This document shows positions 12,580 through 28,048 of a stretch of DNA of 64,000 bases, piece by piece. The notes beneath the pieces were generated by a model that was not told where the DNA came from, searched no databases, and saw only the letters and a list, made by a program, of their open reading frames with translations. Location of the stretch: IMG/VR virus record IMGVR_UViG_3300025120_000020; one strand, 5' to 3'. A program made the position numbers and the translations under genes. The stretch's first letter is position 1. The number at the start of each line of letters is the position of its first letter. Source of the stretch: a virus.

Positions 12580-13495
12580 GAACTTTTTTCTCTAAATGAT
12601 ATTGAACGTCAACGTGCCATAGACGTTGCCCGTGATGTAGTATCTTGGGGATAATCTTCTTCGCCCCCGCTCTTGAGTAAGCAAAAACAAACTGTATGTT
12701 TTCTGGGTAGTCTATCATCAGACTACGAACATTGTGCCACAAGTAACCTAAATTCGATTTGAACTTTGATACTTTGTTTTCTTCCTCGATTTTTTTAATA
12801 GACGACTCGACAACAATGAACATGTAAGAATTAAACTGGACACAACGATCCATTTCGCGCCTGAATCTTTTAATATCTTTTCCGAAAGTTTGTCTAAAAT
12901 CATCTTGAGCTTTTCTATCTACAAAGGTTTTTGAGTAGTATTCTCCAGCAGCAGTATAATCACCGAAGTCTAACTTGTTCTTTACACTATTATCGAAGTT
13001 AAGGGGCTTTTGTTCTCTAGTATCCACGAATATCTGCATGTCTTTACTTTCTTGCTCCCAGAAGTTTTTAGGTAAATTCTTAGTAAACCAAGATTTTATT
13101 CCCAAGTCCTCAGAGAACTCAGAGTAAGACCTCCACATTTTGCGGTAGTAATCTATATTAGGCATTTGAGCCAGCATGTAATATAAGTCTGGTGGAGTAA
13201 ACTTTACATCCTTATTTTTAAATCTTTCGCGAGTGTAATTGATTAAGTGATTTTTTGCTTTGATAGGAGAGGTTGTCTTTAACCAAGATAAATAATTATC
13301 TACATTGTTAAAGTCTTCTGAAAAATATTGGTCGTAGTTTTTGAATTGTAGTAATTCGTTTGTGTAAAGATCTCGTTTGCCATAGTATTCCACATAATAT
13401 TCCCCAATGGAAGTGCTATGAGCTTTAAGGTGGGCGTGAAAGCTTCTACGATTATCGAAGGACTTACCACATACTCTGCAAACAAATTCACTCAT
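12542..13495 (-). CDS. C2H2 zinc finger plus ERCC4/XPF-type nuclease
   Basis: CRVC...HLKAH zinc finger; VDTREQ, LDFGDY and VDRKAQDD match the ERCC4 GDxnERKxxxD pattern. Confidence 0.75.
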   Translation of the reverse strand: MSEFVCRVCGKSFDNRRSFHAHLKAHSTSIGEYYVEYYGKRDLYTNELLQFKNYDQYFSEDFNNVDNYLSWLKTTSPIKAKNHLINYTRERFKNKDVKFTPPDLYYMLAQMPNIDYYRKMWRSYSEFSEDLGIKSWFTKNLPKNFWEQESKDMQIFVDTREQKPLNFDNSVKNKLDFGDYTAAGEYYSKTFVDRKAQDDFRQTFGKDIKRFRREMDRCVQFNSYMFIVVESSIKKIEEENKVSKFKSNLGYLWHNVRSLMIDYPENIQFVFAYSRAGAKKIIPKILHHGQRLWHVDVQYHLEKKVHGMAERKTAVSK

Positions 13496-14550
13496 AACAA
13501 CTCTTTTTTAGATATACCAAGCACTCGTGCTTTATAGTCATCCATATTCTCTAGTCTATCAGCCTCTTCTTCAATTAATTTGTTTTGAAGTTCAGCCATC
13601 ATGATCATACGGTCTCTTTCTTCACGATCTTGAAATGCTTCTACCAGAGCAAAGATAGATCCATTTTCTTCACCTTTAGCTTTCAGTCTTGCGGTTCTAG
13701 ATCCATTCAAGTCTTTCGTTAGGGATTCGATGCGCTTCTCGCACTGGTTAAGCTCTTCGCTGGTGGCCTTGATAATCTCCGTCAGACGCATTGTGATGTC
13801 CCTTTCGTTGTCTTGGTCGTCTAGTAGTGCATTAAGCTTGTCAATACGCATCTGGATGTGTTTCTGGCGCACGTAGTTAGCACATACGGTCACATATAGA
13901 TTCAATTCGTCGTTAGTGAGGTCAGGCTTGTCCCAAATAGCACGGACGAACTCACTTTCGAATAAATTTCTGTCAGCTAGAGTTGAATACTGATTAATAA
14001 AATGATTGAAGCGAGGGCTTTTAAAATAAAGAATTAATTGCTCTACTAGTTTCTTTTGTTTTGTTTGGAGGGTTAGTTCTTCTAGGGTAGCTCCACAGAA
14101 GTTGTTTATCTTAACAATTGCTCTGTTTATAGACTTGGGAGGAGTCCACTTCTCTTTTGTAACAATTTCGTTATCGTCTACAATCTCTGGCCGATAAGTT
14201 TTTAAGAAATCGACAATAACCCTGTGCTTCATGCTCAAGGGTTGAACGTCACGGTCTTTGAAGGTGAGTCGGGCAATTTCTAGTGCATTCATCCCAACTT
14301 CAATATTGTCAGTCATCAAGAACTCTTTTTGTTCCCTATTTAGATGAACCTGCTCTACTTTCGGGGCAAGTGATGTATTTGCTTTTTTGTCTTGTCCAGC
14401 TAAGAACTTCCTCACTGCACGGCCCTGTTTCGATCTCCCATCAATATCCTCGTCATTGAATACTTTGCGGGTAATAAACATCAAATCGGGGTTTGTTTTA
14501 AACAATTTAAGAATTTCCTCTTTCTGCTCTTCTGTTAAATCATATATCAT
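13492..14550 (-). CDS. Hypothetical coiled-coil protein (terminase small subunit candidate)
   Basis: 352 aa, helical, two genes upstream of TerL. Confidence 0.4.
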   Translation of the reverse strand: MIYDLTEEQKEEILKLFKTNPDLMFITRKVFNDEDIDGRSKQGRAVRKFLAGQDKKANTSLAPKVEQVHLNREQKEFLMTDNIEVGMNALEIARLTFKDRDVQPLSMKHRVIVDFLKTYRPEIVDDNEIVTKEKWTPPKSINRAIVKINNFCGATLEELTLQTKQKKLVEQLILYFKSPRFNHFINQYSTLADRNLFESEFVRAIWDKPDLTNDELNLYVTVCANYVRQKHIQMRIDKLNALLDDQDNERDITMRLTEIIKATSEELNQCEKRIESLTKDLNGSRTARLKAKGEENGSIFALVEAFQDREERDRMIMMAELQNKLIEEEADRLENMDDYKARVLGISKKELL

Positions 14551-15227
14551 TATATATCCTCCTCTTTTACTAACTTAGCTGCTATATTGTAAAACTTCTT
14601 CTTCAGGTTGTTTATTTGTTTGTATCTAGGTGTCTTTCTTCTACTTGTATCTCGCTTGAACCCAAACTTCTTAGCAACCTCTGCTTCATCTACGTGATCT
14701 ATAAACAAAAGCTTATATATCTCTTTATGCTTGTCGTTTAACTCAGCCATAACCAAAAGATGTATCTTGGACGTTTTCTTATCATAGTCCAATTCATCTT
14801 CATTTATTCTATCTTTAACCGATATTAAAGCATCTAAAGAGACTGGCATCTTTAAATGAAACGCGCTTTGTTTTTTATTCTTCCATTTAGCGAAGTCCCC
14901 ACACTCTTCGTCCTGCTCCTTGCTTTTAGTAAAGCTACACTCATCTCCACCTAAATAAAAAGAACACCGCAAACACGGTTTAGCGAAGTTCCCATAATGA
15001 TTCCTTATCAGATTCTTTATCTGATTACTAATCAACATAGAAGCCCAAGGCTTAAATGCTCTCTTCTGATCCCACAAATGCCACTTTTTATAGATATGAG
15101 TGCGGATTATTTGAGATACATCATCATAATCCAACCAAGCTATGGAATTAAGTTGCCACTTGGTTCTATACCTACTTAAAAGTTCTTCTATCTCTGGAAT
15201 AAGGTCTTCATACCTTTTATCCATCAA
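14550..15227 (-). CDS. Phage sigma-70/ECF-like factor with a Cys-rich insertion
   Basis: Region-2-like YDDVSQ...FKPWASMLISNQIKNLIR and region-4 HTH EAEVAKKFG; CxxC...C...C lies between them. Confidence 0.7.
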   Translation of the reverse strand: MMDKRYEDLIPEIEELLSRYRTKWQLNSIAWLDYDDVSQIIRTHIYKKWHLWDQKRAFKPWASMLISNQIKNLIRNHYGNFAKPCLRCSFYLGGDECSFTKSKEQDEECGDFAKWKNKKQSAFHLKMPVSLDALISVKDRINEDELDYDKKTSKIHLLVMAELNDKHKEIYKLLFIDHVDEAEVAKKFGFKRDTSRRKTPRYKQINNLKKKFYNIAAKLVKEEDI

Positions 15228-15599: not shown

Positions 15600-16274
15600 T
15601 TATTGATTTGGGGCTAATAATTCAATTTTTTCTACAAGATATGTAATAATTTTATCTCTTATCACATCTTCCTTACTAAACTCTACACTATGCACCCCTT
15701 TTTTGGAACTTTGCTCGTCTTTAAACAAATTAGCCAACTTAGTAAACCCACTACTCCTAATGTCACTCTGCAAACTATCCCCACACACAAATAACCTACT
15801 GCCACGACCAATCCTTGTAAGCACAGTAGTCAACTCTCTCACACTCATATTCTGAGCCTCATCCACAATCACAATCTTATCCCGCCAAGTGCATCCGCGC
15901 AAAAAGTTAATCGGCTCCGCTTCTAATACTCTTTTGTTTTTTAACTGGTCTTTCTCTGGCTTGTTCAATAACTCGTCAATCTTATCAAGTAACGGAGCCA
16001 TATATGGCCCAAACTTATCATCCATATCACCTTTCAGAAAACCTATCCCCCTATCCGCACTCTCCACAACACTACGCAAATACAATATTTTTAAGTTTTT
16101 GTCGTTATTATACAAATCTAAGGCACTATAAACAGAAAGAAATGTCTTAGCCGTTCCTGCTGGCCCACCCAGAAATACAATCCGAGTATTGTTGTCTGAC
16201 ATTATGTCATAGAATTCTTTTTGTTTTTTTGTTAATTCAATATGACCCAATAACAAGCTGCTGTCTTTTATCAT
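15600..16274 (-). CDS. phoH: PhoH-family ATPase
   Basis: GPAGTAKT, GFLKGD, FLRGCT, IVDEAQN, LTRIG, GDSLQSD. Confidence 0.93.
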   Translation of the reverse strand: MIKDSSLLLGHIELTKKQKEFYDIMSDNNTRIVFLGGPAGTAKTFLSVYSALDLYNNDKNLKILYLRSVVESADRGIGFLKGDMDDKFGPYMAPLLDKIDELLNKPEKDQLKNKRVLEAEPINFLRGCTWRDKIVIVDEAQNMSVRELTTVLTRIGRGSRLFVCGDSLQSDIRSSGFTKLANLFKDEQSSKKGVHSVEFSKEDVIRDKIITYLVEKIELLAPNQ

Positions 16275-16499
16275 TTCTTTTTATTTATTACACGGGTTTA
16301 GCTTTTGTTTTGTTTTATTCTGTGGCGCACCGCCACTTTTAATATGAAAAATAACTTCTTTATAGTGTTCACCACCCCCCGCGCTGTATGCGTCAAGCAC
16401 AAAAGTCAAAAAGTTTCAGAAAACCCCTCCCCTAAAAAAAAATACATTTATATGCAGAAAAAGCTTTTTGTTTACCCTGATCTGTGATAAAATACACGC

Positions 16500-16775
16500 A
16501 TGGCAACGATATACTTCTCAGGAGGAAAAGCGAAACACGCAAACGAAATCAAGAGTTTCGTCATCATCTCGAAAACCGCTGAAGGCAAAGAGGTTGTTTG
16601 GGGCGAGACCACAAACACTAAAACAGTTGAGAAATTGAGAAGTGGTCAACACTGGGCTTTCCCCGAAGGGAAGTTCGTTCGCGTCGAGGAGTTTGAGAAC
16701 GCAAAGGCTTCTTGGGCTTCCAAGCATGGAGAAAGGCTGGAACTTCTTTATGGTCGCAACTCCCGACCCCGTTAA
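16500..16775 (+). CDS. Hypothetical early protein (leaderless)
   Basis: First gene after the strand switch, with TAAAAT 6 nt before the ATG. Confidence 0.6.
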   Translation: MATIYFSGGKAKHANEIKSFVIISKTAEGKEVVWGETTNTKTVEKLRSGQHWAFPEGKFVRVEEFENAKASWASKHGERLELLYGRNSRPR

Positions 16776-16804
16776 AAAAAGTTTTCTTTTTATACGAAAA
16801 GAGC

Positions 16805-16833
16805 TTGCACCAATCAGAAAAATAAAGTAGAAT
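16805..16833 (+). promoter_or_regulatory. Sigma70-type promoter, leaderless transcript
   Basis: TTGCAC-17 nt-TAGAAT, then 6 nt, then ATG at 16840. Confidence 0.75.
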
Positions 16834-16839
16834 TCACAC

Positions 16840-17031
16840 ATGACCGCAACCGAAGAAGCACTAGCAGCAATGGCAAAAGCAGAAGCAGGATGGGACAAAT
16901 TAGCAGAGGAGACCGTTGAGGTTTCTGGCCAGTTCCAGAAAGAATGCCAAGAGTTCCGAAAAGAGCAAAGGGAATGGTTCCTTGAAAATGTGCCTGACCA
17001 GCCGAAGCAAGACCCTAGATTCCTAGCCTAA
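16840..17031 (+). CDS. Hypothetical protein, paralog of 19298-19450
   Basis: Shared AM.KAE..WDK.....EVSGQFQKECQE. Confidence 0.7.
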   Translation: MTATEEALAAMAKAEAGWDKLAEETVEVSGQFQKECQEFRKEQREWFLENVPDQPKQDPRFLA

Positions 17032-17058
17032 AAAATAACAAGTAAGAAAACTACCATT

Positions 17059-17283
17059 ATGAATCTCCACAATTTCAAATATCAGTCCCCAATGGGGAAA
17101 GCAATCTTGATTCTCACCTATCCCATTCTCTTCCCTCATCACATTGGGGAGTTGATGCGTGAGCGAAAGTTGAAGCGAATTATCCGCAAGGGCATCGCGG
17201 ATGCATGCAAAGAGCCGCAGGGCGTGACTGCGGAAATCGTCAACGAAGCCTCGTGCGAACTCCGCATGATTTACGGCAAGTAA
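17059..17283 (+). CDS. Hypothetical protein
   Basis: 74-aa ORF directly upstream of the mini-tmRNA. Confidence 0.55.
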   Translation: MNLHNFKYQSPMGKAILILTYPILFPHHIGELMRERKLKRIIRKGIADACKEPQGVTAEIVNEASCELRMIYGK

Positions 17284-17289
17284 AAAGTT

Positions 17290-17355
17290 GGGTGGCCAAT
17301 GGTTTCGACGGGACGCGAGTCTCGGATGGGGGTTCGATCCCCCCGCCATCCACCA
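17290..17355 (+). ncRNA. ssrA-like: Mini-tmRNA: tRNA-like domain only, no mRNA/tag domain
   Basis: Acceptor GGGTGGC/GCCATCC with G3-U70, A73 and encoded CCA; stemless D-loop with GGTTTCGAC; helix CGGGAC-GCGA-GTCTCG; GAT; T-arm GGGGG-TTCGATC-CCCCC. Confidence 0.85.
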
Positions 17356-17403
17356 AAAAAAATACTTGACACGTTGAGTTTTTATGTTATAAAAAAAATC
17401 GCT

Positions 17404-17480
17404 CTAACTAACTGAGTATCAACGAGTTACGGGGAAGCGCCCCGCCCCCGCCCGTAACTGACTGAGTATCAACGACTTAC
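17404..17480 (-). repeat. 77-bp bipartite palindromic element E1 (GC box C-rich on +)
   Basis: CTAACTAACTGAGTATCAACGAGTTAC / GGGGAAGCGCCCCGCCCCCGCCC / GTAACTGACTGAGTATCAACGACTTAC (27/23/27). Confidence 0.95.
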
Positions 17481-17596
17481 GAAGGTTTTTTCTATATCAA
17501 AACAAGCCATCGTGTCAAGCCCTTTTAAATAAAAAAAAGATTAAATATATGCAGAAAAAGCTTTTCTTTTGTGAGATTCTCCTGTATACTATGCCC

Positions 17597-17842
17597 ATGT
17601 CCGACACTACTACATCACCAACGTTCCGCACCTACAAGACCAAGCATCTGATTCTCTCGGTCTACCGCACGGGAATGACTTACTTGCACATCTCTGTAAA
17701 AAATAGCCAGTGGAGTCGCTATAAGTTCCAAGCTATCACCCGCGAGCAAGCAGCTAAAGCCCTCCTTGATATCCGCGCAGCCAAACGCGCAGCCAAGAGA
17801 GTAGAGGCCGAAGCCCTTGTTTCTGTCGCTTCTTACCTCTAA
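17597..17842 (+). CDS. Hypothetical early protein
   Basis: Start reassigned to MSDTTTS, 6 nt after TATACT. Confidence 0.6.
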   Translation: MSDTTTSPTFRTYKTKHLILSVYRTGMTYLHISVKNSQWSRYKFQAITREQAAKALLDIRAAKRAAKRVEAEALVSVASYL

Positions 17843-17898
17843 AAAAGATCAAAATAATCCTTGCACCAACCCCAAATCTAGACTATAATTCTCTCGTT

Positions 17899-18234
17899 AT
17901 GAAAAACACCACTACCACTACCACCACCCGCTTCGATCACGCCCTCTATGGACTCAGTGACGAAGACCTCAAGACTAAGCTCACCAATCGCGTGGTGACT
18001 TACTTCAACAGCGACGAATCCTCTGTCAAAAATGACGGCGTTCGTCAGTTCGTGATCAAGTCAATCGACTACACTGGTCACGCCAAAGGATCGGGTCGTC
18101 GCTACATCCAAGGCGAGGTTCAAGACCTCGACGATGGAGGCAAGACCAAGTTCCGCACTCTGCACGTTGCAGGGATCGAAAAGGTGAAAGGTCGCGTGGC
18201 GACCGCTTACCAGCTAGCCAAATCAGTTTTCTAA
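17899..18234 (+). CDS. Hypothetical protein (SH3/WYL-like?), paralog of 18879-19097
   Basis: TTGCAC-17-TATAAT promoter at 17861-17889; C-terminal FRTLHVAGIEK versus FRTLYFSRIEK. Confidence 0.65.
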   Translation: MKNTTTTTTTRFDHALYGLSDEDLKTKLTNRVVTYFNSDESSVKNDGVRQFVIKSIDYTGHAKGSGRRYIQGEVQDLDDGGKTKFRTLHVAGIEKVKGRVATAYQLAKSVF

Positions 18235-18248
18235 TGGTGTGTGTGTCT

Positions 18249-18286
18249 ACCCGTCAGTCTCTTCGGAGGCTGGCGGGTTTTTTTTT
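18249..18286 (+). terminator. Intrinsic terminator
   Basis: ACCCGTCAGTCTC-TTCG-GAGGCTGGCGGGT followed by a T tract. Confidence 0.85.
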
Positions 18287-18341
18287 GATTTATATGCAAA
18301 AAGATCTTGCGCGTGATTCTTTTTTCGAGTATACTATCGGC

Positions 18342-18569
18342 ATGGCAACAGTAACACAAAACCACTTAGCAGACTTAGCATATCAAGCAGGACTCCGAGG
18401 TCATGAGAGTATCACCTGCCCCCGTTCATACCTTGGCTGGGTAATCCCAGAAATGTTCGAAGATGGAGCGATGGCCTTCGGGATCTGGAGGCACTTCTGG
18501 GCAGAGGGTGAGCGGGTCGAGAGGGAAGCTTGCGCTCGCGATTACGATGACAGTCGATTGGATTACTAA
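18342..18569 (+). CDS. Hypothetical early protein (leaderless)
   Basis: TTGCGC-17-TATACT, 6 nt, then ATG (MATVTQNH); terminator follows. Confidence 0.65.
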   Translation: MATVTQNHLADLAYQAGLRGHESITCPRSYLGWVIPEMFEDGAMAFGIWRHFWAEGERVEREACARDYDDSRLDY

Positions 18570-18584
18570 TCCGCACCACACAAG

Positions 18585-18609
18585 GCTCCCGAAAGGGAGC
18601 TTTTTTTTT
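18585..18609 (+). terminator. Intrinsic terminator
   Basis: GCTCCC-GAAA-GGGAGC followed by T9. Confidence 0.9.
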
Positions 18610-18668
18610 GAATTAAATTAATCTTTTGTGTTGACATCCGCGAGAAAACAGTTAATAAAAAAATCCTC

Positions 18669-18745
18669 CTAACTCACTGAGTATCAAGGAGTTGCGGGCG
18701 GGGGCGGGGCCGTGGCCCCTAACTCGTTGAGTATCAAGGACTTAC
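18669..18745 (+). repeat. 77-bp element E2 (G-rich on +)
   Basis: CTAACTCACTGAGTATCAAGGAGTTGC / GGGCGGGGGCGGGGCCGTGGCCC / CTAACTCGTTGAGTATCAAGGACTTAC. Confidence 0.95.
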
Positions 18746-18878
18746 AACGTTTTTTTCTTTATAGTAAACAAGGAGAGAGTCAAGCCTAAAAATAAAAATA
18801 AATGCTGTCTGACAGATTAAAAAAAGATTAAAATACATGCAGAAAAACCTTTTAATCTCTGAGTTTTTAGAGTAAAAT

Positions 18879-19097
18879 ATGCACATGACCAACCAAGACA
18901 ACATCACCCGCCTGATCAAGAAGCAGTTTGTTTACACCACTTCTAACAATGGAAATCTTCGCATGTATCAACTTCGCGGGGTTGAGCATTCCACCAAGGA
19001 CTTCGCAGTTTGTAAAGTGGTTGACGTAAGTCACGACAGCAAGACGGGCGACGAGGAAATTTTCAGAACTCTCTACTTCTCACGCATAGAAAAATAA
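18879..19097 (+). CDS. Hypothetical protein, paralog of 17899-18234
   Basis: Shared C-terminal motif; the real start is probably the ATG at 18885, 6 nt after TAAAAT. Confidence 0.6.
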   Translation: MHMTNQDNITRLIKKQFVYTTSNNGNLRMYQLRGVEHSTKDFAVCKVVDVSHDSKTGDEEIFRTLYFSRIEK

Positions 19098-19163
19098 TTA
19101 AAAAAACATTTAAAAAGGGCTTGCGCCCATCCCCCAAATCCTTTATACTCCCCCCAGTAAGAA

Positions 19164-19277
19164 AGCTCTATAGTTTAAAAAGTAAAACATTCTCCACGGC
19201 CTCTCCAATCATAAGCCACCGCAACCCAAATGGTTCGGGCGAGAAAGACAAAGGTGCAATTCCTTTTAGAGCAACCA
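19164..19277 (+). ncRNA. tRNA-like RNA with a 46-nt expanded anticodon loop
   Basis: Acceptor (A)GCTCTA/TAGAGC(A)-A-CCA; D-arm GTTT/AAAC; stem TTCTC/GAGAA; T-arm AAAGG-TGCAATT-CCTTT; own promoter TTGCGC-17-TATACT at 19121-19149. Confidence 0.75.
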
Positions 19278-19297
19278 ATTTTCCAGACACAAACACT

Positions 19298-19450
19298 ATG
19301 AACTTATCAAAAGAATCACAGGAAGCAATAGAAGCAATGAAGAAGGCCGAAGAGAATTGGGACAAGATGGTTGCTAGAGCTTCCGAGGTCTCAGGTCAAT
19401 TCCAGAAAGAGTGCCAAGAGTTGAAAGTTGAATTGGAGGAATTAAAATAG
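19298..19450 (+). CDS. Hypothetical protein, paralog of 16840-17031
   Basis: MNLSKESQEAIEAMKKAEENWDK...; the ORF-track 5' extension overlaps the tRNA-like RNA and is unlikely. Confidence 0.65.
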   Translation: MNLSKESQEAIEAMKKAEENWDKMVARASEVSGQFQKECQELKVELEELK

Positions 19451-19454
19451 AGTC

Positions 19455-19652
19455 ATGAAAGAAGAAAAAAATCCACTCCTCGCGAGTGCTGAAACCGCTT
19501 TAGCTTTTGAAGAAGCAATGAAAGAATACATCGCGGAGCTTGAGGTTGATGGTGTAGTTAGTTACAGCCACTTTACTTTGCGCCGTTTACATAATCGTTT
19601 TGGCAGGGAAGCTGTCCAAGGATGGCTGAATAATCACTTTGATAATAAATAA
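19455..19652 (+). CDS. Hypothetical protein
   Basis: 65-aa ORF in a tight operon. Confidence 0.5.
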   Translation: MKEEKNPLLASAETALAFEEAMKEYIAELEVDGVVSYSHFTLRRLHNRFGREAVQGWLNNHFDNK

Positions 19653-19653
19653 A

Positions 19654-20379
19654 ATGAAAAAACTCCTAATCATCACACTGCTTGCTGTATCAGTTTACTT
19701 CTTTCAGGAGGCTGGCAAAGTGGCCAATAAAGAAAAACAAGTAAAGGTTACCCCGACGACTGTCGAGATTCAGAAGCAAGCCGCGCCTGAGATTGTTAAA
19801 ACATGGCAAGCACCCGTGCTTGTTAAGCCAAAGCGTTTTTACAAGAGAGACAAGAAAGAAGATCTAGTTCCTGTTCTTGTTAGACCTAAAAAATCCTACA
19901 GGGTCGAAGAGGTTAAAAAAGAAATCAAAAAAGAAATCTCTGCTTGGGATAAAATGTTTTCTAAAGTAAAACACTACGAGAGTTTTAAGTCTAAAGCGTA
20001 TCGTTGCAGTGGTGGAGTCATGACTATCGGCTATGGCCATACCAAAAATGTTAGATGGGGCGACACTATCACAGAATCAGAAGCAGTGAAACTGTTAGAA
20101 GAAGAATTACTTGTTGCTAAAAATCATGTGATGAGAATTGTAAAAGTTCCATTGACCGAAAATCAATTGGCATCACTCACAAGTTTTACTTTTAACTGTG
20201 GTCAAGGTTCACTAAGCAAATTGGTCTGTGAAAAAAAGAATAGACTCAATAATGGAAACTATAAAAGCGTTGAGGTGGTCATGCCTCAATATAGAATGGC
20301 AGCGGGGAAAATCCGAAAAGGTTTGGAGCTTCGGAGAAAATGGGAAGTTTCTTTGTGGCGTGATAAAAATTCACTATAA
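19654..20379 (+). CDS. GH24 phage lysozyme with an N-terminal signal/anchor
   Basis: HYESFKSKAYRCSGGVMTIGYGHT (E-x8-C-x5-T triad), LTSFTFNCG, GLELRRKWE; MKKLLIITLLAVSVYFF leader. Confidence 0.9.
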   Translation: MKKLLIITLLAVSVYFFQEAGKVANKEKQVKVTPTTVEIQKQAAPEIVKTWQAPVLVKPKRFYKRDKKEDLVPVLVRPKKSYRVEEVKKEIKKEISAWDKMFSKVKHYESFKSKAYRCSGGVMTIGYGHTKNVRWGDTITESEAVKLLEEELLVAKNHVMRIVKVPLTENQLASLTSFTFNCGQGSLSKLVCEKKNRLNNGNYKSVEVVMPQYRMAAGKIRKGLELRRKWEVSLWRDKNSL

Positions 20380-20392
20380 TAAAAAAAACTCT

Positions 20393-20469
20393 GTAAGTCG
20401 TTGAACGTCAAGGAGTTACGAGCGGGGGCGGGGCCAATGGCCCTAACTCGTTGAGCATCAGTGACTTAG
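20393..20469 (+). repeat. 77-bp element E3 (G-rich on +)
   Basis: GTAAGTCGTTGAACGTCAAGGAGTTAC / GAGCGGGGGCGGGGCCAATGGCC / CTAACTCGTTGAGCATCAGTGACTTAG. Confidence 0.95.
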
Positions 20470-20487
20470 AAGGTTTTTTAATTTTAG

Positions 20488-20542
20488 GCTTCTCTGTAAC
20501 TCACTGAGCTTCTCTGTAACTCACTGAGTATCAGTTGGTTAT
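20488..20542. repeat. 20-bp tandem duplication plus a solitary third palindrome
   Basis: GCTTCTCTGTAACTCACTGA twice (20488-20527), continuing as GTAACTCACTGAGTATCAGTTGGTTAT (20516-20542). Confidence 0.85.
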
Positions 20543-20648
20543 AACGCAATATATCTGGCCCTATATATTTGACTTATTTGTTGTTAACCTTAATGACCTT
20601 TGTGCTTTTTTCTCTTGACGAAAAGAAACTATAATGTAGAATTCACTT

Positions 20649-20855
20649 ATGCCTAAATCAACTGAATCCGTCCGTATCGAAGTTAGAAACCAAGATCAGG
20701 CTATCATGCTTGAATATGCTTTACGTCTCGTTCATCAACACCTAGCCGAAAGGATGGGGGATGTCCAAGATGATAAGTTTGAAAGCTTCGTTGATAACGT
20801 AAAGTGGACACGCAAGCACGTTGCTGCATTAAACGAAAAGTTTGCTCTTAGTTAA
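20649..20855 (+). CDS. Hypothetical early protein (leaderless)
   Basis: TTGACG-16-TAGAAT, 6 nt, then ATG; hairpin and T tract at about 20875-20915. Confidence 0.65.
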   Translation: MPKSTESVRIEVRNQDQAIMLEYALRLVHQHLAERMGDVQDDKFESFVDNVKWTRKHVAALNEKFALS

Positions 20856-20960
20856 TCGCAAGGTTGGCTATCCAAACCTCTCCTACTTTTCTAGACAGTG
20901 GGAGGGGTTTTTTTTCTTTTTTAATTTGACGCTTGGTCAATTTTCCCCCATACTCCCGAC

Positions 20961-21197
20961 ATGACAGTTCAAAATCCTATTGCTGATAGTCTCGCCCCGA
21001 TGAATGAAACAGACTTACGCGACATGCTCGATGATGGACCTCGCGCTGGCAACTTTAACCCCACGCCCGAAGTAGTGGGAGAGTTGCTCGCGCAGATCCA
21101 AAACGATATGGGTGATCGTAACCCCGAATGGTCTTCTGATGATGGCCTCTCACCCGCAGACGCGCAAGCTCTTCAAAATCACCTCGACGGAGAATAA
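20961..21197 (+). CDS. Small acidic hypothetical protein (leaderless)
   Basis: TTGACG-17-CATACT, 6 nt, then ATG; very Asp/Glu-rich. Confidence 0.65.
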   Translation: MTVQNPIADSLAPMNETDLRDMLDDGPRAGNFNPTPEVVGELLAQIQNDMGDRNPEWSSDDGLSPADAQALQNHLDGE

Positions 21198-21206
21198 AAA
21201 ATCGTT

Positions 21207-21283
21207 TTAACTCCTTGAACGTCAAGGAGTTGCGGCAAAGCCCCCCGCCCCGCCCCGTAAGTCGTTGATAATCAGTGACTTAC
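21207..21283 (-). repeat. 77-bp element E4 (C-rich on +)
   Basis: TTAACTCCTTGAACGTCAAGGAGTTGC / GGCAAAGCCCCCCGCCCCGCCCC / GTAAGTCGTTGATAATCAGTGACTTAC. Confidence 0.95.
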
Positions 21284-21473
21284 GGGGTTTTTCTCTTTAT
21301 CATAAAGCTGGGGGGGATGTCAAGCTTATTTGTTAAAATATTTGGCATTGTTAGCGCAAAAAAAATCACTTTTAATGCAAAAAAGGTATTGCGCTTCACA
21401 AAAAAATGGTTTAGACTCTCACCAGTTCAGAGGCAGTTCTCTGACAGTTAACCAACTAGAAACTACTACTACT

Positions 21474-22271
21474 ATGAAAAACCTAATCTACTCCTCCAAC
21501 AAAGTCAGCTATGATCAACTCAAAGAAGTTGAAAAGCCTGATCCTATGGGTTCGCGTCACTTCCCAATTGACCATCACGAGTTGGTCGATATCGCCAAGC
21601 GCGAACTGGAACACAGTGGCTTTGACATTGTGCAGGAAGAACACGGTCTCGCTGAGAAAGGCATGAATTGCTTTTCTGGTTTTGCCATTCGCAAGTCAGA
21701 CTTTGATAATACTGACCGCGAGCTTGTCTTTGGTCTTCGGAACTCCCACAATCAAAAGTTTGCTAGTTCTGTAGCGGTTGGTTCCTCAATGCTTGTTTGC
21801 GAGAATCTTTGCTTTTCCTCTGACATTACCCTGTCACGGAAGCACACCCGCAACATTTTTCAGGATCTCCCACTAGTTATGGCCGAAGCCATTGGTTCCA
21901 TCCAAAAGACTTGGGACAATGAAGGCAAGCGAATTGAGACTTACAAGAACACCGAGGCTGATGAGATCGAGGTAATCAACAAGCTTCTCAAGGCTGGTTT
22001 GATCAAGCCCACCAAGATTGAAAAATTCTTGGATCTTGTTCAGAATGGTGGCGTTGATGTTGACGGCACAAAGGGAGCTTTCCACGAGCATCGCGGGACA
22101 CTCTGGAATATCTTCAATGCTGTCACAGAATCCTACAAGGATTTGACTGCCAACAATGTCATGCACCTACCACGCATGACAATGCAAACCCAAGGTATTC
22201 TCGACAGGGTTGCAAACCCTTCCTTGATTACTGCGGAAGATCGCAATTCCGCACTCGTTTTATCTGCCTAG
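21474..22271 (+). CDS. DUF932-family protein
   Basis: HFPIDH...GLRNSHN...LVCENL...RKHT...TLWNIFNAVTE pattern. Confidence 0.75.
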   Translation: MKNLIYSSNKVSYDQLKEVEKPDPMGSRHFPIDHHELVDIAKRELEHSGFDIVQEEHGLAEKGMNCFSGFAIRKSDFDNTDRELVFGLRNSHNQKFASSVAVGSSMLVCENLCFSSDITLSRKHTRNIFQDLPLVMAEAIGSIQKTWDNEGKRIETYKNTEADEIEVINKLLKAGLIKPTKIEKFLDLVQNGGVDVDGTKGAFHEHRGTLWNIFNAVTESYKDLTANNVMHLPRMTMQTQGILDRVANPSLITAEDRNSALVLSA

Positions 22272-22305
22272 CCTATAACGCCCCCCGAAAGGGGGGCTTC
22301 TTATC

Positions 22306-22419
22306 ATGAAAGAACAGGACAGAACTTTTTTTGAGAATGTGGTTTTTACTTGCATGTTCATTTTGTCAGGTATAATATCTCTTGTCGGCGTTGTGCATCT
22401 TTTTAAAATGGCGTTTTAA
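22306..22419 (+). CDS. 37-aa single-TM membrane peptide
   Basis: Read manually as MKEQDRTFFENVVFTCMFILSG...; resembles 56908-57024. Confidence 0.55.
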   Translation: MKEQDRTFFENVVFTCMFILSGIISLVGVVHLFKMAF

Positions 22420-22499
22420 TTTTCATCGTGGTCGATAGCGTAACCTCGTCCCCTCTGCATGGGGGGCGGGGTTTTTCTTTTCTAATAATAAAAAACGCT

Positions 22500-22576
22500 G
22501 TAAGTCGTTGAGTATCAATGAGTTACGGGCGGGGGCGGGGCCGCGCCCCGTAAGTCGCTATCGTTCAGTGGCTTAT
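22500..22576 (+). repeat. 77-bp element E5 (G-rich on +)
   Basis: GTAAGTCGTTGAGTATCAATGAGTTAC / GGGCGGGGGCGGGGCCGCGCCCC / GTAAGTCGCTATCGTTCAGTGGCTTAT. Confidence 0.95.
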
Positions 22577-22649
22577 GAAGATTTTTTTAAATTAAAAAAA
22601 CATTAAAAAGGCTTGTTTTGAAATCAAATTCTGTCAGAATACTCTCGTT

Positions 22650-23346
22650 ATGGAACAAGAGATACCAACAATCAGATTGACAGGACATTTCAATAAAACC
22701 TTCAGTGTTAAAAAGGAGGAGAAGGCTTACAAGGGCTTAGAATATTCCATTGAATGGGATTTTGATAAGAAGAAAACCCGCATCCCGATTTCGACACACG
22801 GTGCGATTGAACTATCAGAAGTGTTTGATAAGCTAGGCTTCACACAAATTCACCGCGAAAGCTAAAACCATGACAATAGAAGTAGAAAGAAAAGAAGTTT
22901 ACGGTAATACTCTGACTTATGTGAAAAAAGAATCTGTCAGGAATTCCATAAAGAAACTAACAGGAAGAAAAACTTTAACCGACTACGACGTTGAAGCTCT
23001 TAAAGAGTTGGGATTTGTCTTGGTCATTGAACAAGTAACAGAAAGAATTTAAATTATGATTAAAGAACACACAATGCCATGCATCCACATGAATGGATCG
23101 GGAGAGACCAGCCTACGCAGACAATACAACGAATTGTTTGAAGCTGTAAGCGAGGCGCAAATTAAACTGCTTTTTGATACAGACTTCCATCAAAGGGATT
23201 ACTACCCTCTTGGGGATGAAGCTTGGGATAAAGCTTATCAAGAAAGAGAAGAGGTTAAGAAGGCAATGAATACAGTCTATCAATATGCGAAGCAGCATAT
23301 GCACTTCCTTGAATATGGAAAGGAGCCATTGCCAGATGAGCATTAA
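22650..23346 (+). CDS. Cassette of three small hypothetical genes (22650-22865, 22870-23052, 23056-23346)
   Basis: Tightly spaced ORFs between E5 and E6 behind one promoter. Confidence 0.55.
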
Positions 23347-23359
23347 ATAAAAATATCTC

Positions 23360-23436
23360 CTAAGTCATTGAATATCAGTGGCTTAGGGGCAAGCCCCCCG
23401 CCGCGCCCCGTAACTCCTTATCAATCAGTGAGTTAC
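23360..23436 (-). repeat. 77-bp element E6 (C-rich on +)
   Basis: CTAAGTCATTGAATATCAGTGGCTTAG / GGGCAAGCCCCCCGCCGCGCCCC / GTAACTCCTTATCAATCAGTGAGTTAC. Confidence 0.95.
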
Positions 23437-23548
23437 GAGGTTTTTTTCTATATACGAAAAAACTAATAGTGCAAGCTCAAAATAAAATAATAAAAAACAT
23501 TAAAAAAGCCTTGTCTCGCAGGAAAAATCCTGTCAGAATACTCTCGTT

Positions 23549-23899
23549 ATGGGATTAGATCAATACGCAGAACGAAGGGATTCAAATGGAGAAGATTGCG
23601 AAATCACCAATTGGAGAAAGCACAACGCCTTGCAAGGTTGGATGGAAAACCTCTGGACTCTCAAAACTGGGAAGCCAGCAGATGAATTAAACTGCCATGA
23701 AGTCGAATTGACTGCCGAGGATTTAGAAAGTCTGTGGGCAGTGGTTGAGGCTGGAAAGTTGCCGGAAACTGTGGGTTTCTTTTACGGTGCTGACAGTAGT
23801 CAGGATGAGTGGAGAAAAGAGAAGGATCTTAAATTTATCAAGGAGGCTCTTGAGGCGATTGATGAAGGGGACAAAGTTTTTTATTCTTGCTGGTGGTAA
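23549..23899 (+). CDS. Conserved phage hypothetical protein (MGLDQY...WRKHN type)
   Basis: MGLDQYA, WRKHNALQGWM, LPETVGFFYG, VFYSCWW. Confidence 0.7.
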   Translation: MGLDQYAERRDSNGEDCEITNWRKHNALQGWMENLWTLKTGKPADELNCHEVELTAEDLESLWAVVEAGKLPETVGFFYGADSSQDEWRKEKDLKFIKEALEAIDEGDKVFYSCWW

Positions 23900-23923
23900 A
23901 TCTTTAATCAAAAATAAAACACA

Positions 23924-24628
23924 ATGAAATTACTTAATTCAGGCAACGCCAAAACCCTCAAGGGTGAAAAGGTTGGGTTCCGCACATTCGGACTCCATCT
24001 TTCCCCTGCTACCAAATCAGGATTCAACGTCTGCCAATGGGCAAGCGCGGGATGTCGTGCAGCTTGTTTAGATACAGCGGGGCGCGGTTGTATGTCCAAC
24101 GTGCAAAATTCTAGAATCGCTAAAACGCGAAGGTTCTTTAAAGATAACTTGGGTTTTATGTCGGATCTTCGAATTGAAATCGGCAAGGCTATCAAAAGCG
24201 CAGCGAGAAAAAGCCTCACCCCTTGTTTCCGTCTCAATCTTACAAGCGATATTCCTTGGGAGAACATGAAGAAGGGGAGCAAGACAAGTGTGATCGAAGA
24301 ATTCCCAGAGGTTAATTTTTATGATTATACCAAGGGCTTCCCTAGAATGATGGCTTGGCTTCATGGTAAGATGCCCGACAACTACCACCTGACCTTTTCC
24401 CGCAGTGAAGAGACTAGCGATGACAGAATAAAAAAGATTCTTTCGCTAGGCGGGAACGTTGCGATTGTTTTCCGCGCTTCGCTTCCTAAAACTTATCTTG
24501 GTTTTACTGTCGTCGATGGTGATGAGAACGATCTCCGCTTCAAAGATGAAAAGGGCGTGATCGTTGGATTGGTCGAGAAAGGTCTTGCAAAAAAAGACGA
24601 AACTGGTTTTGTAGTGGAGCCAAAATGA
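23924..24628 (+). CDS. GP88-family phage protein (radical-SAM-like Cys motif)
   Basis: NVCQWASAGCRAACL, FRLNLTSDI, FYDYTK, YHLTFS, DGDENDLRF. Confidence 0.8.
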   Translation: MKLLNSGNAKTLKGEKVGFRTFGLHLSPATKSGFNVCQWASAGCRAACLDTAGRGCMSNVQNSRIAKTRRFFKDNLGFMSDLRIEIGKAIKSAARKSLTPCFRLNLTSDIPWENMKKGSKTSVIEEFPEVNFYDYTKGFPRMMAWLHGKMPDNYHLTFSRSEETSDDRIKKILSLGGNVAIVFRASLPKTYLGFTVVDGDENDLRFKDEKGVIVGLVEKGLAKKDETGFVVEPK

Positions 24629-24715
24629 CAAGCGGAGAATCAGACACCTTGATCATTTTAATCATGGCGATTATCGCTATAATATTCAGGAAAAGAAATT
24701 AAGAAAAATAAAAAC

Positions 24716-24898
24716 ATGGAACCAATAAAACCAGACTTCTCAGAAGCAAACAAGTTCGCCGTCTTAAATAGAGGGTTTAGAGATGAATTCGACAAAGCCT
24801 ATAAAAATTTTTGGAAGCGTAGGAACATGGAAACCCCTGATCTTGGTTGGTTCGGGGATAGGAAAAAGAGAAAAGAAGAAATGAAATCTGCTAAATAA
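24716..24898 (+). CDS. Hypothetical protein
   Basis: 60-aa ORF ending just before E7. Confidence 0.5.
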   Translation: MEPIKPDFSEANKFAVLNRGFRDEFDKAYKNFWKRRNMETPDLGWFGDRKKRKEEMKSAK

Positions 24899-24907
24899 AA
24901 AACCCTC

Positions 24908-24984
24908 GTAACTCGTTGACTATCAACGGGTTACGGGCGGGGGCGGGGCCACTCGCCGTAACTCCTTACTAATCAGTGACTTAG
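24908..24984 (+). repeat. 77-bp element E7 (G-rich on +)
   Basis: GTAACTCGTTGACTATCAACGGGTTAC / GGGCGGGGGCGGGGCCACTCGCC / GTAACTCCTTACTAATCAGTGACTTAG. Confidence 0.95.
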
Positions 24985-25049
24985 AGCGGAAATTTTTAAT
25001 TAATTTAAATTTGACGATCCTCCCGCTTCATGGTATGTTTCCCTCAGAC

Positions 25050-26151
25050 ATGAAAAAACAAGTAAGCACAAAGAGACTCCTAGAAGCTCTACTTCAAACC
25101 TACATGGATACCAATGACCTAAAGAACATTTACAACGGCGACGGAAGCGAGCTAATGACGGTTGATGAAGCTGTAAAGTTCGTCGATGGGTTGAAAGAGG
25201 AGGCTAGTCCTGAGCAGGTTGCATTTGAATCTCAACTGGACACTATGATAGAAGAGTTTAGGACGGTCTTCCCTCCTTCTATAGGCGAAGCCGAACGTGG
25301 GGCGGGTCAAGGCACTTGGTTTGACCTTATGCACAGCATCTGGAACAAGCACGTTCAAGTTGAGTTGATGGAAAGATACAGCAATCTATAATACTATGAA
25401 GCAAGAAGAACAAACCTCTTCAACACGGATGCGGGGCTGGTTATATGATGTCAACATTTTAGAGATGGCTAGAATAGCTTGCGCCTCAATACCAGAAGAC
25501 CTTTGTGAGCAGATGGATTTATCTGATGAGTGGTTCATCGAGATTAGAGACTACATACAAAACGAACTAAATGGATACCATGATGCACGAACGAATTAAA
25601 AAACTAAAAAAAGAAGCTCCAGAGGAGATCCCACTGTTTCTAAAAGCGGGGGGGATCTTCAACACGATTGACGGATTGTCGATCACTGGAGACAAACAAA
25701 AGCTGGAACAAATAGAAAAGATTTTGGATTTTACCCCTTCAACAAAAGATGGTCGCGACTTGAGATCTGTAATGATCTTGAGGGCAGAGGCTAAATCTGA
25801 AGAGGGAATGTTTGGAAATGGCACATTCTTAATCGATTAAAAAAATAAAAACAAATGACAATAACAAACAAAGAACTACTGGGGTTCGCGAAAACGCAAA
25901 ACTCAAACGCCAAACTGCACCTTGATTGTAGTATCACTTGACTGGCAGCACAAGCAGCTACTCAGTTGAGTGGTAAAGAACACAGAATGGTGGGGTGGAA
26001 CCAATTTGACGATTTTACAGAAGACCTCACATATACAAAAGTGTCTCCTGAATACGCTGAATGGTCTGAAGGGGTTAACAACCACAACATGGAAAATAAT
26101 ACCTATATCACATTCCAAGACGCTATCGAAGCTCTAGAATCTTTTGATTAA
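25050..26151 (+). CDS. Cassette of small hypothetical genes (about 25050-25391, 25396-25599, 25571-25840, and one ending at 26151)
   Basis: Consecutive short ORFs between E7 and E8. Confidence 0.5.
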
Positions 26152-26165
26152 AAAATAAAATCTTC

Positions 26166-26242
26166 GTAACTCGTTGACCGCCAGCGAGTTACGGAGGGGG
26201 GCGGGGCCGACCCGCCTAACTCCTTACTACTCAATGGGTTAC
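26166..26242 (+). repeat. 77-bp element E8 (G-rich on +), with a solitary degenerate palindrome at 26263-26289
   Basis: GTAACTCGTTGACCGCCAGCGAGTTAC / GGAGGGGGGCGGGGCCGACCCGC / CTAACTCCTTACTACTCAATGGGTTAC. Confidence 0.95.
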
Positions 26243-26538
26243 AGCGTTTTTTTTGATTATCTCTAACTCACTGATAATTAGTTTGTTGTGTAATCGGGTT
26301 TTGTTTATTTGTTGCCTACTGAAAAAACGGGCATCTGGAATGTTTTTGCTTGCCTTAGTTCTATATACTGTTATATTACATACATGAAAGACGAGGATCT
26401 TGCCGCCCTTATTGATAATATTGTATTTATTTGCTGTCTTATATTTATCTTTATTGTTGCTTGTTGTGGGCTTGATAAATTAATTGATTTATTTGCAGGT
26501 TAATCTCTTTCATGTATTGTATTGGTTCTCATAGTGCG

Positions 26539-26573
26539 AACGACCCGTCTCCTTTGTTGGGGACGGGTCGTTT
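26539..26573 (+). terminator. Hairpin terminator closing the early region
   Basis: AACGACCCGTCTCC-TTTGTT-GGGGACGGGTCGTT. Confidence 0.7.
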
Positions 26574-27370
26574 ATTTGCGCTTATTTCGCCTAAAATCCT
26601 ACAACCTTGGGTGCTAGATTACTCTGCTATAAAAGACACAAGTATAAGCAGTGAAATAGTAATTAAAATAAATGGCTCAAAATAATACACACCCTTTATT
26701 TGCGGAAAAATCGTTTAACCTTGGAGCAGGAATTACCTTTATCATTATTTGACTTAATGTCTCCAAACTTGCGCCCTTTATTAATGCCAAAAATTTGTTG
26801 TAATTTGCTTGTTTGCTCTGGATCGAGGTTCACATCGAATTTGTTTTTGTTGCTATCTTGCTTCATTGTATATATTGGTATATGCTTATTTGGCTTTTCT
26901 GGGAAAAGTGGGGACTTTTGCTGCTGCTTGTAAGCTAGCTTTTATTTGGTTTTATTTGCTTAAAGTGGGCAAAGACGCGCTTTATTTGGTTTTTTTTAGA
27001 AAAACTGGCGTTTGCTTTGTGTTTGACTAGGGCTAAATATTACTAATTATAAAAAAATATTATAGGCGGGGCTTATTTTATAAAATTTTATTCAATCAGG
27101 AGCTGTTTGGGCTGCTTTTGTTTGCTTTTGTTGGCTATTCGGGGGCAAAAGTTAGCTGAATTACCATTATTTATTATTTAGAGCAACAGCCACTATCCTA
27201 TTATCCATTACTACATCCATTAATATCTGATTAAACCCTTATTCTATCTTGTTTTCTTATTGTATCTCTATTATGTATTACTCTATGTATTACCTTGAAA
27301 GATACTGTATAAAAAGGAATAAAAACTAAGGTATAAATAAAAAGAATAAATTATGGTAATTTATTATAAA

Positions 27371-28048
27371 TTATACTCTGGCAGGAGTCTCAATTACATT
27401 CTTATAAGCAAGATCATATAGCTTTAGCCCCAAATCTTTTCCCCAGATAGTAAACAAAGACTCTTCTAGCATTTTATTATACCTCAATGCGGCTTCTTCT
27501 TCTGTTTCAAGATTTTTTGATAAACTAAAAGCTTTCCCGCTTTGATCTATTGTATTCTTTGTATCTATCCTAGCTTTAAATTTTCCCCTATCACTTGTTA
27601 CCCCTTTATGTGGACTAAAGCCTTCTCTTTTCGGGCCTCTCTTTAAATTATTCTCTAATTGAGTAACAATCATTAGATTACTGTGATGATTATTGCTTGG
27701 GTCGCCATCAATATGATCAGGACATACTTGATTACAAATGAAAGTAAATTCTGTTGGGGTCTTTAAAATATGTCTGTCTCTGCCTACTAGTAAACCATAG
27801 TAAGATACTAAGGGAGATTTAGGTAAAAGATCATGGAATGTTTCTGCTATTAACGCATGAACTCCCATAGGTGTCATTTTAGAATTTAAATAAGGGCATA
27901 CATTTACATATCTACTAAATGACCTTGAGTTGGCCTTTAAAACCTTATCATTCTTCCTAACACTATGAACTTGTGAGGTGTTAAAATCTATTTCATAATC
28001 AGGATAAGTAACACCCTGATAAATAATTGGCCTTCTAAGTGAATTCAT
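27371..28048 (-). CDS. HNH endonuclease with an AP2-like C-terminal domain
   Basis: VHALIAETF, PDHIDGDPSNNHHSNL; HKGV...KFKARI...EEEAALRYN. Confidence 0.8.
   Translation of the reverse strand: MNSLRRPIIYQGVTYPDYEIDFNTSQVHSVRKNDKVLKANSRSFSRYVNVCPYLNSKMTPMGVHALIAETFHDLLPKSPLVSYYGLLVGRDRHILKTPTEFTFICNQVCPDHIDGDPSNNHHSNLMIVTQLENNLKRGPKREGFSPHKGVTSDRGKFKARIDTKNTIDQSGKAFSLSKNLETEEEAALRYNKMLEESLFTIWGKDLGLKLYDLAYKNVIETPARV

Follow-up and report, generated by a model that had tools for sequence, protein, structure and literature searches.

The 64,000-nucleotide (nt) stretch of DNA analysed here, IMG/VR virus record IMGVR_UViG_3300025120_000020 (referred to throughout as the window), belongs to a phage and carries genes for a terminase, a sigma-like protein, PhoH, a lysozyme, GP88, DUF932 and HNH proteins and a RuvB-like ATPase. 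Between the PhoH gene (15600-16274, minus strand) and the HNH gene (27371-28048, minus strand) lies a block of small early genes (16300-27100, plus strand) that runs away from the conserved minus-strand block reaching from PhoH to the terminase. Most genes of the early block have their own sigma70-type promoter, with the ATG start codon located 6 nt after the -10 box, and because this distance is so short the early genes are probably leaderless. The subject of this analysis is an array of eight copies of a 77-bp element within this block, numbered e1 to e8, which start at positions 17404, 18669, 20393, 21207, 22500, 23360, 24908 and 26166, as listed in a first-pass annotation made from the sequence alone.

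Each copy consists of two 27-bp palindromes, 50 bp apart, on either side of a 23-bp spacer of about 85% G+C. An alignment of the eight copies together with flanks of 24 nt and 30 nt yielded 131 columns with 0 gaps and a mean column identity of 74%; as the alignment is gap-free, the 27/23/27 geometry is identical in 8/8 elements of the window. A repeat search returned a single family of eight 108-nt copies, spaced 814-1724 bp apart. This repeat unit of about 108 bp includes an upstream A-run of 5-8 and a downstream T-run of 5-8 in 8/8 copies, and the A and T tracts previously described as bracketing the elements are present throughout but form part of the repeat unit itself. Matches to the half-site pattern TAASTNNNTNNNNNNCANNGNNTT with at most one mismatch number 33 in the window against 2.83 expected, a count reached by 0 of 100 shuffles, and 32 of the 33 fall within 17405-26240. 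The one left over, at 40422, is chance-like, which upholds the earlier statement that the element occurs nowhere else in the window.

All eight elements are intergenic, in agreement with the placement just past a stop codon or terminator that had been described for them, and none is assigned to a strand. Five of them (e3, e4, e6, e7 and e8) start 9-14 nt past a stop codon without another terminator between, ordinary hairpin-plus-T terminators directly precede e2 and e5, and a mini-transfer-messenger RNA (tmRNA) gene precedes e1. The asymmetric GC box noted in the spacer is present, but its orientation is not uniform: in e1, e4 and e6 it runs the opposite way to that in e2, e3, e5, e7 and e8. 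Element e1 (17404-17480; palindromes 17404-17430 and 17454-17480) has a C-rich, inverted spacer with the A-run upstream and the T-run downstream. The spacer of e2 (18669-18745) is G-rich, GGGCGGGGGCGGGGCC, and this copy lies behind a terminator (18582-18603) and a TTGACA-16-TAATAA promoter-like site. Element e3 (20393-20469), also with a G-rich spacer, starts 13 nt past the stop codon of the lysozyme gene (19639-20379). In e4 (21207-21283), which has an inverted spacer, the second palindrome and CCCCG/CGGGG make up a 17-bp hairpin that is followed at once by T5. The second palindrome is decayed in e5 through e8. Among these, e5 (22500-22576; G-rich spacer) lies behind terminators at 22280-22297 and 22442-22473, e6 (23360-23436; inverted spacer) starts 13 nt past the stop codon at 23346, e7 (24908-24984; G-rich spacer) starts 9 nt past the stop codon at 24898 and is followed 26 nt downstream by the next -35 box, TTGACG (25011), and e8 (26166-26242; G-rich spacer) is the last copy of the array. 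A lone extra palindrome at 20516-20542, with 17 of 24 arm positions fitting the consensus, lies behind an exact 20-nt tandem duplication of TTCTCTGTAACTCACTGAG (20490-20529) that holds a palindrome half-site and resembles the trace that slippage would leave at an element arm.

The promoter is not part of the repeat unit, and the distance from an element to the next promoter varies from about 26 to 170 bp in the window and from 34 to 99 bp in one relative (L011). Family-wide, a strict promoter regular expression matched too few promoters for these distances to be measured.

Collection scans were made for related viral contigs and for bacterial assemblies; both returned 26 stretches, and the figures resting on them are lower bounds. 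The perfect consensus GTAACTCGTTGA-N3-TCAACGAGTTAC was found in at least 26 stretches from at least about 22 related uncultured IMG/VR contigs of up to 148 kb, and these stretches hold at least 266 palindromes. The arrays are always confined to the small-gene block beside PhoH and terminase, and at ten loci the array adjoins the same conserved block as in the window, comprising the sigma-like protein, a zinc-ribbon protein and a 350-amino-acid protein of unknown function. A complete relative (G001, CheckV 100%, 147.7 kb) carries only seven elements, in two clusters. The pairs in relatives most often have palindromes 50 bp apart (78 cases), followed by 51 bp (21), 58 bp (9) and 48 bp (7); tandem palindromes 27 or 34 bp apart also occur, and one phage-like contig has a 42-bp spacing. 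Both spacing and spacer sequence are constant inside a genome and different between genomes. The first-pass annotation had stated that the geometry never changes and had named variable spacer length in homologues as a point against a structured binding site. The rigidity turns out to be a property of single genomes, and since the spacing among homologues ranges from 42 to 58 bp, a single fixed three-dimensional geometry of the element is unlikely.

Gene order also changes at the elements. When open reading frame families conserved among the loci were followed, gene adjacency was kept in 59 of 231 comparisons that span an element (26%), compared to 93 of 171 at element-free junctions (54%), and conserved junctions also keep their element. 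Families 3 and 10, for example, are adjacent in four relatives and are split in the window by the lysozyme cassette, which is flanked by elements.

The arms themselves were compared across 120 unique elements (480 arms) from about 22 contigs. Positions A3, A4 and T10 are essentially invariant in all 480 arms, T2, T6 and A12 are nearly so, and the three central "loop" bases are held to K-W-M. At position 5, C or G is chosen independently in each arm (the same in 0.57 versus 0.52 expected), and as a result about 45% of palindromes have C opposite C or G opposite G there; at position 9 there is no compensation between arms either. The statistics are two-fold symmetric, with GT>AC variants on the outer arms (AC 81 and GT 42 in the first palindrome, GT 94 and AC 41 in the second) and G>C on the inner arms. 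Two palindromes from different genomes resemble each other as closely as two from one genome (0.78 versus 0.79), which does not hold for spacers (0.55 versus 0.74). As the variable positions change independently in the two arms, the arms appear to be conserved in sequence rather than in pairing, which favours a protein that reads duplex DNA.

Spacer orientation is independent of the direction of transcription (5 versus 3 in the window); in relatives, 13 spacers are G-rich, 27 are C-rich and 32 are balanced. The other GC-rich spacers carried by relatives and the occurrence of both orientations led us to reject a G-quadruplex or Chi role for the GC box. A hairpin within the spacer was also set aside, as the mean best stem is barely above that of composition-matched shuffles (4.45 versus 4.03), with stems of at least 5 bp in 51% of spacers compared to 30% of shuffles.

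The same palindrome recurs in bacterial genomes. One genome per species was scanned for TAASTCGTTGA-N3-TCAACGASTTA, for which about 0.3 matches are expected by chance, and at least 26 stretches were found. Three of those are phage-like arrays binned into metagenome-assembled genomes, and the other 23 are of bacterial type; 23/23 listed stretches of this type are single sites in Bacteroidota, Fibrobacter, Verrucomicrobiota, Lentisphaerota or Akkermansia-like bins. In an Akkermansia contig (L075), four DnaA-box-like xGTTCCACx motifs lie in a stretch of about 250 bp (1390-1646) just upstream of dnaA with the palindrome mid-way among them, which makes this a candidate oriC or dnaA control region with a putative architectural-protein site. 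Three Akkermansia bins (L048, L049, L055) keep the palindrome beside an inverted xGTTCCACx pair upstream of argS, and one Akkermansia genome has 7 sites at no more than one mismatch versus 0 for a control pattern. In a Verrucomicrobiales assembly (L065, L073) the palindrome lies between iterons and RPA-type rep genes, and in Bacteroidota (L035, L039, L053, L057) it lies between a tRNA or chromosomal gene and tyrosine-integrase genes. Palindromes stand beside tRNA genes in both Bacteroidota and Lentisphaerota, with tyrosine-integrase genes also present in the former. Four Fibrobacter bins keep the palindrome upstream of the same two-gene operon. Several of the bacterial sites are situated between divergent genes, and those sites therefore cannot be terminators.

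Origins, plasmid origins and att arms are the textbook contexts of integration host factor (IHF), and the likeness of the best half-sites to the IHF consensus pointed out by the first-pass annotation holds in register. The E. coli IHF consensus WATCAANNNNTTR is matched exactly in 7 of the 16 palindromes of the window (15 matches versus 4.4 expected in the window as a whole), and the most conserved bases of the palindrome, whose family consensus is TCAACGAGTTA, coincide with the TCAA-N4-TTR of IHF (here TCAA-N4-TTA). No HU/IHF gene was found in the complete relative G001, in two relatives that are 86-87% complete or among 62 small proteins of the window, which fits a factor supplied by the host. 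Each of five site-bearing bacterial genomes has 1-5 HU/IHF-family genes, as nearly all bacteria do. Among other candidates, the sites of NtcA, FNR, CRP, Fur, LexA, Fis and parS were rejected, as the spacing of their consensus sequences does not fit, and a literature search for the arm sequence returned primers only. With 53 DnaA-box-like motifs against 72 expected, the window shows no enrichment of them, and so the phage elements are not DnaA-type origins.

The anatomy of the elements, their conservation across the family, the independence of the arms, the recurrence in bacteria and the lower gene adjacency across elements are thus established. Considering the invariant bases, the independent variation of the arms, the two-fold symmetry and the bacterial origin-type and att-type sites, the reading that we favour, at a probability of roughly 0.45, is that the elements are modules at cassette boundaries to which an architectural, DNA-bending protein, probably of host origin, is recruited, and that in this phage they would also serve as two-way terminators and as incidental homology for exchange. 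In some bacteria the same sequence lies at origins of replication and at the ends of mobile elements, and for this reason we take the palindrome to be a probable docking site of such a protein. Each element would be a two-fold symmetric duplex recruiting a sequence-specific DNA-bending protein, most likely an IHF/HU-like protein of the host, which would read both 27-bp palindromes through the half-site nTAASTCnnTGAK, with the stiff, G+C-rich spacer holding the palindromes apart at a length fixed in each genome. Positioned directly behind a stop codon and ahead of the next promoter, the unit would form a boundary between independently transcribed cassettes. With the A-run and T-run that flank it in the window, the transcribed dyad may act as an intrinsic terminator in either direction, and identical arms at all boundaries could offer homology patches for the loss, gain and exchange of cassettes as a side effect. 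Protein binding, the identity of the protein, bending, and the boundary and terminator effects are what we infer from sequence comparison. The first-pass annotation had proposed a protein-bound site that is either architectural or recombinational; comparison gives its best backing to the former, and the integron analogy drawn for the latter does not stand.

A more specific form of the favoured reading strikes us as rather doubtful. According to this version the palindrome would be the high-affinity site of an IHF-like protein of the Fibrobacteres-Chlorobi-Bacteroidetes (FCB) and Planctomycetes-Verrucomicrobia-Chlamydiae (PVC) bacteria, used there at dnaA/oriC, plasmid origins and integrative-element ends, and would have been adopted by a global family of large lytic phages as paired, GC-clamped boundary modules that fold cassettes into transcriptional domains and serve as exchange joints.

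Several observations weigh against recruitment of an architectural protein. The TCAA and TTGA boxes stand 4 bp too far apart for a symmetric E. coli IHF site, as judged by the published IHF-H' complex, and so one IHF-like dimer could not read both halves. As the spacing of the pairs differs among relatives, no single helical phasing is kept. In bacteria the palindrome is sporadic, with the exact form in 4 of 121 Verrucomicrobiota genomes, and in 60 other Bacteroidota genomes matches at no more than two mismatches are not above control; it is therefore no general feature of these phyla, and the binder could possibly be a protein of mobile elements or of particular lineages. Six Bacteroidota sites (L035, L039, L042, L051, L053, L057) show the palindrome followed by a common T-rich flank ending in TTTTTAGGGCA, beside a tRNA 3' end or a tyrosine-integrase gene; because the flank is shared, the Bacteroidota sites are probably one family of mobile or integrative elements and not independent cases. 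In addition, the arms show modest covariation at positions 8 and 11, changes on the outer arms stay compatible with G.U pairing in the flank-side hairpin, and the elements hug stop codons, being nearer to the upstream stop at 36 of 54 co-directional junctions in relatives.

The latter points are those on which a role at the RNA level would build, in which the dyad hairpins would stop or weaken transcription arriving from either side and shield the upstream mRNA at its 3' end, the arms being conserved by descent and gene conversion. The A-run before and the T-run after 8/8 copies would suit such a role, as would the five copies placed 9-14 nt past a stop codon, the G.U-compatible outer-arm variants, which fit a 3' hairpin on either strand, and the somewhat enriched spacer stems. 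Strong predicted hairpins abut the U-run in e3, e4, e5 and e6, with z-scores of -4.4 to -6.5, and in e1 and e2 a whole-element hairpin provides the combination of hairpin and U-run. However, the predicted folds are unlike one another among the eight copies, the hairpin beside the U-run is weak in e7 and e8, and e2 and e5 already have ordinary terminators upstream. The T-run is missing in most relatives, and in one (L011) the element precedes an A-run and a promoter. Pairing alone would not demand three invariant positions in 480 arms, and C.C or G.G opposition at position 5 is found without covariation. Given also the bacterial copies between divergent genes and inside origins, we regard this explanation as unlikely.

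Still less probable, in our estimation, is that the phage itself encodes a regulator of no known family for which the elements are operators. Much as at mycobacteriophage stoperators or the TF1 sites of SPO1, this dimer or tetramer would shut off or insulate early transcription, and the bacterial copies would belong to related mobile elements that encode a homologous protein. Conservation of the palindrome across the whole phage family in several habitats, the sporadic and mostly mobile-element-linked distribution in bacteria and the constant position of the array beside the block with the sigma-like, zinc-ribbon and 350-amino-acid proteins are all in keeping with it. Against it, no helix-turn-helix, HU/IHF or other known DNA-binding family was recognised among the 62 small window proteins, a search that would miss unknown folds, nor was there a PHROG match for ten larger ones, and it is difficult to attribute the dnaA and argS sites of Akkermansia and the operon site of the four Fibrobacter bins to a mobile element.

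We assign a similarly low standing to a primary role as recombination linkers, kept so that co-infecting phages can swap early cassettes by homologous recombination, as has been demonstrated for promoter-early stem-loops (PeSLs), whose copies recombine to give indels, replacements and mini-circles. The reduced gene adjacency across elements, the homogenised spacers within genomes (0.74 versus 0.55 between them), which suggest gene conversion among copies, the spacers that differ between strains otherwise about 95% alike, and the insertion of the element-flanked lysozyme cassette between families 3 and 10 all speak for such exchange. Lower adjacency is, however, to be expected at any operon boundary, 27-bp patches of homology are short, and palindromy, invariant bases and bacterial sites are left unexplained. 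The best-supported strain difference does not involve an element: in contigs of four marine runs from four studies, positions 18834-19161 (a 72-amino-acid gene and its promoter) are swapped for 47 other nt, and the change is a promoter-to-promoter cassette replacement, with one end in a promoter and the other at the start of a tRNA-like gene. Contigs of these runs tend to end at elements, and the apparent joints at elements, which extend over only 25-38 nt on one side, are ascribed to the similarity of the copies and not to rearrangement. No bridging contig with a junction inside an element and no cassette circles, both of which had been suggested as signs of shuffling, were seen in the contigs of the four runs. 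The cassette-shuffling proposal therefore survives in part: elements delimit units of gene-order change, but the best-supported replacement ends in promoters, and we infer no element-specific recombination mechanism.

An integron-like array of attC-type sites acted on by a site-specific recombinase, as first suggested, is highly improbable, resembling the present array in layout alone (imperfect palindromes repeated at the 3' ends of small gene cassettes), as no recombinase was found and attC features are lacking: the palindrome is 12-3-12, GTTACGG does not fit GTTRRRY, the 3-bp centre is too short for the overlap region of a tyrosine recombinase, the arms are conserved in sequence and most cassettes have their own promoter. 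In contrast, attC sites, with their R''/L''-L'/R' boxes, keep a folded structure but not a sequence, and integron cassettes lack promoters and are read from a common one. The earlier remark that no recombinase is visible in the window was confirmed, and a wider search for tyrosine and serine recombinases, made in relatives, gave the same result, with no match to Phage_integrase (PF00589), Resolvase or Y1_Tnp (PF01797) in G001 (complete) or in G002 and G003 (86-87% complete).

The general kind of element is already known from PeSLs, from bacterial interspersed mosaic elements (BIMEs) including the RIP type, and from dispersed phage operators; what is new here is that the palindromes come in pairs around a GC clamp and are linked to origin-type and att-type sites of bacteria. 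PeSLs were described in the T4-type phages RB49 and phi1 (Arbiol et al. 2010, PMC2839356). Like the present elements, PeSLs recur as intergenic cassettes within a hyperplastic region of small early genes, present a stop codon in A/T-rich DNA, a stem-loop with G/C tracts, an A/T-rich region and a sigma70-type promoter in that order, and are tied to gene gain, loss and exchange. A PeSL is, however, one compact unit of promoter and hairpin of which the promoter is the conserved part, whereas conservation here falls on two 27-bp palindromes that have no relation to promoter boxes and lie at a variable distance from the next promoter. PeSL genes have a Shine-Dalgarno sequence whereas those here are predicted to be leaderless, no mini-circles were seen in the contigs of the four marine runs, and the present palindrome, unlike PeSLs, recurs at bacterial origin-type and att-type sites.

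The well-known IHF sites of Proteobacteria are the H sites of lambda attP, oriC, the pSC101 and R6K origins, Mu Pe and the sites upstream of lambda pL. The present palindrome resembles them in the in-register half-site and its most conserved bases, in the bacterial copies at a dnaA/origin region, an iteron plasmid origin and an integrase att arm, and in the phage copies upstream of early promoters. It differs from them as a perfect 12-3-12 palindrome in place of an asymmetric 13-mer, with halves too distant for one canonical dimer. We know of no IHF consensus for FCB and PVC bacteria, in which the palindrome was found.

RIP elements (REP-IHF-REP) consist of GC-rich repetitive extragenic palindromes (REPs) that flank a central IHF site, and proposed roles of BIMEs and RIPs include termination, mRNA stability and DNA architecture. 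The present elements share with them a composite length of about 100 bp, an intergenic and 3'-proximal position, dyad symmetry and the combination of palindromes with an IHF or IHF-like site. In contrast, the order here is inside-out, with IHF-like palindromes flanking a G+C-rich centre, the elements are phage-borne, and no REP-associated tyrosine (RAYT) transposase (Y1, PF01797) was found in G001-G003. The stoperators of cluster A mycobacteriophages are 13-bp, asymmetric, orientation-dependent repressor sites of temperate phages, and TF1 of SPO1 is a phage-encoded HU-family protein that prefers hydroxymethyluracil DNA and binds the early host-takeover region. Many copies of one putative protein site across the short intergenic gaps of a phage gene block are common to these systems and the present one, which differs in its paired palindromes, in a phage without an integrase, as judged from the window and the relatives G001-G003, and in having no known phage binder.

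If correct, the favoured reading would supply a DNA motif with which to test for an architectural protein in phyla for which little is known of the biology of origins, att sites and plasmids, among them those of Akkermansia and Fibrobacter, marine Verrucomicrobiota and Bacteroidota. It would also mean that an abundant uncultured lineage of marine phages orders its host-takeover genes as insulated, swappable units, and the motif could aid host prediction for this phage family and, in metagenome-assembled genomes, help to place origins of replication and the ends of mobile elements. Should one of the more ordinary readings apply instead, the 77-bp unit would still be a compact natural part and a candidate two-way transcriptional insulator.

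With respect to the phage itself, the same DNA is present in marine, seawater and viral metagenome runs of 14 studies. Searches of the region against 50,697 phage records with megablast and blastn returned no match to a cultured relative, ten larger window proteins had no match in PHROG, and the terminase is only about 25% identical to those of Bacillus and Clostridium phages.

Several further features of the early block were observed. Ten of the 13 window matches to WAWAMT-N6-ATG lie within an 8-kb portion of it (16488-23551, plus strand); the -10 boxes read TATACT, TAAAAT or AATACT and are followed by ATG after exactly 6 nt, with no Shine-Dalgarno sequence, and the same layout is found in six successive genes of L011 (680-2830, minus strand). 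A second repeated box, ATATGCAGAAAAAGCTT, occurs at 16446-16466, 17543-17563, 18288-18308, 18831-18851 and 26694-26714, upstream of some -10 boxes at the expected -35 position, and ATGCAT boxes are similarly placed in L011. This box may mark a second promoter class, perhaps one read with the phage sigma-like protein (14550-15227).

The tmRNA-like RNA upstream of e1 (17290-17355, plus strand) spans 66 nt and comprises the tRNA-like domain only, with a G3.U70 acceptor stem, a T arm and an encoded CCA. It scores 48.1 bits against the Rfam tmRNA model (gathering score 47) and lies directly upstream of a TTGACA-17-TATAAA promoter-like site and e1. The tRNA-like gene at the end of the strain replacement (19164-19274, plus strand) matches the Rfam tRNA model at 40.9 bits without an ARAGORN call, is 111 nt long and hence has a large insert, and lies behind its own TTGCGC-17-TATACT promoter.

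Elsewhere in the window, the G+C content jumps from 34-43% to 46-58% near 40 kb (1-40000 compared to 40000-64000). Directly upstream of the large terminase gene, an open reading frame at 12542-13495 (minus strand) has weak Pfam matches to a C2H2 zinc finger and an ERCC4-type nuclease domain, and this gene (family 13) keeps its place beside the terminase in relatives.

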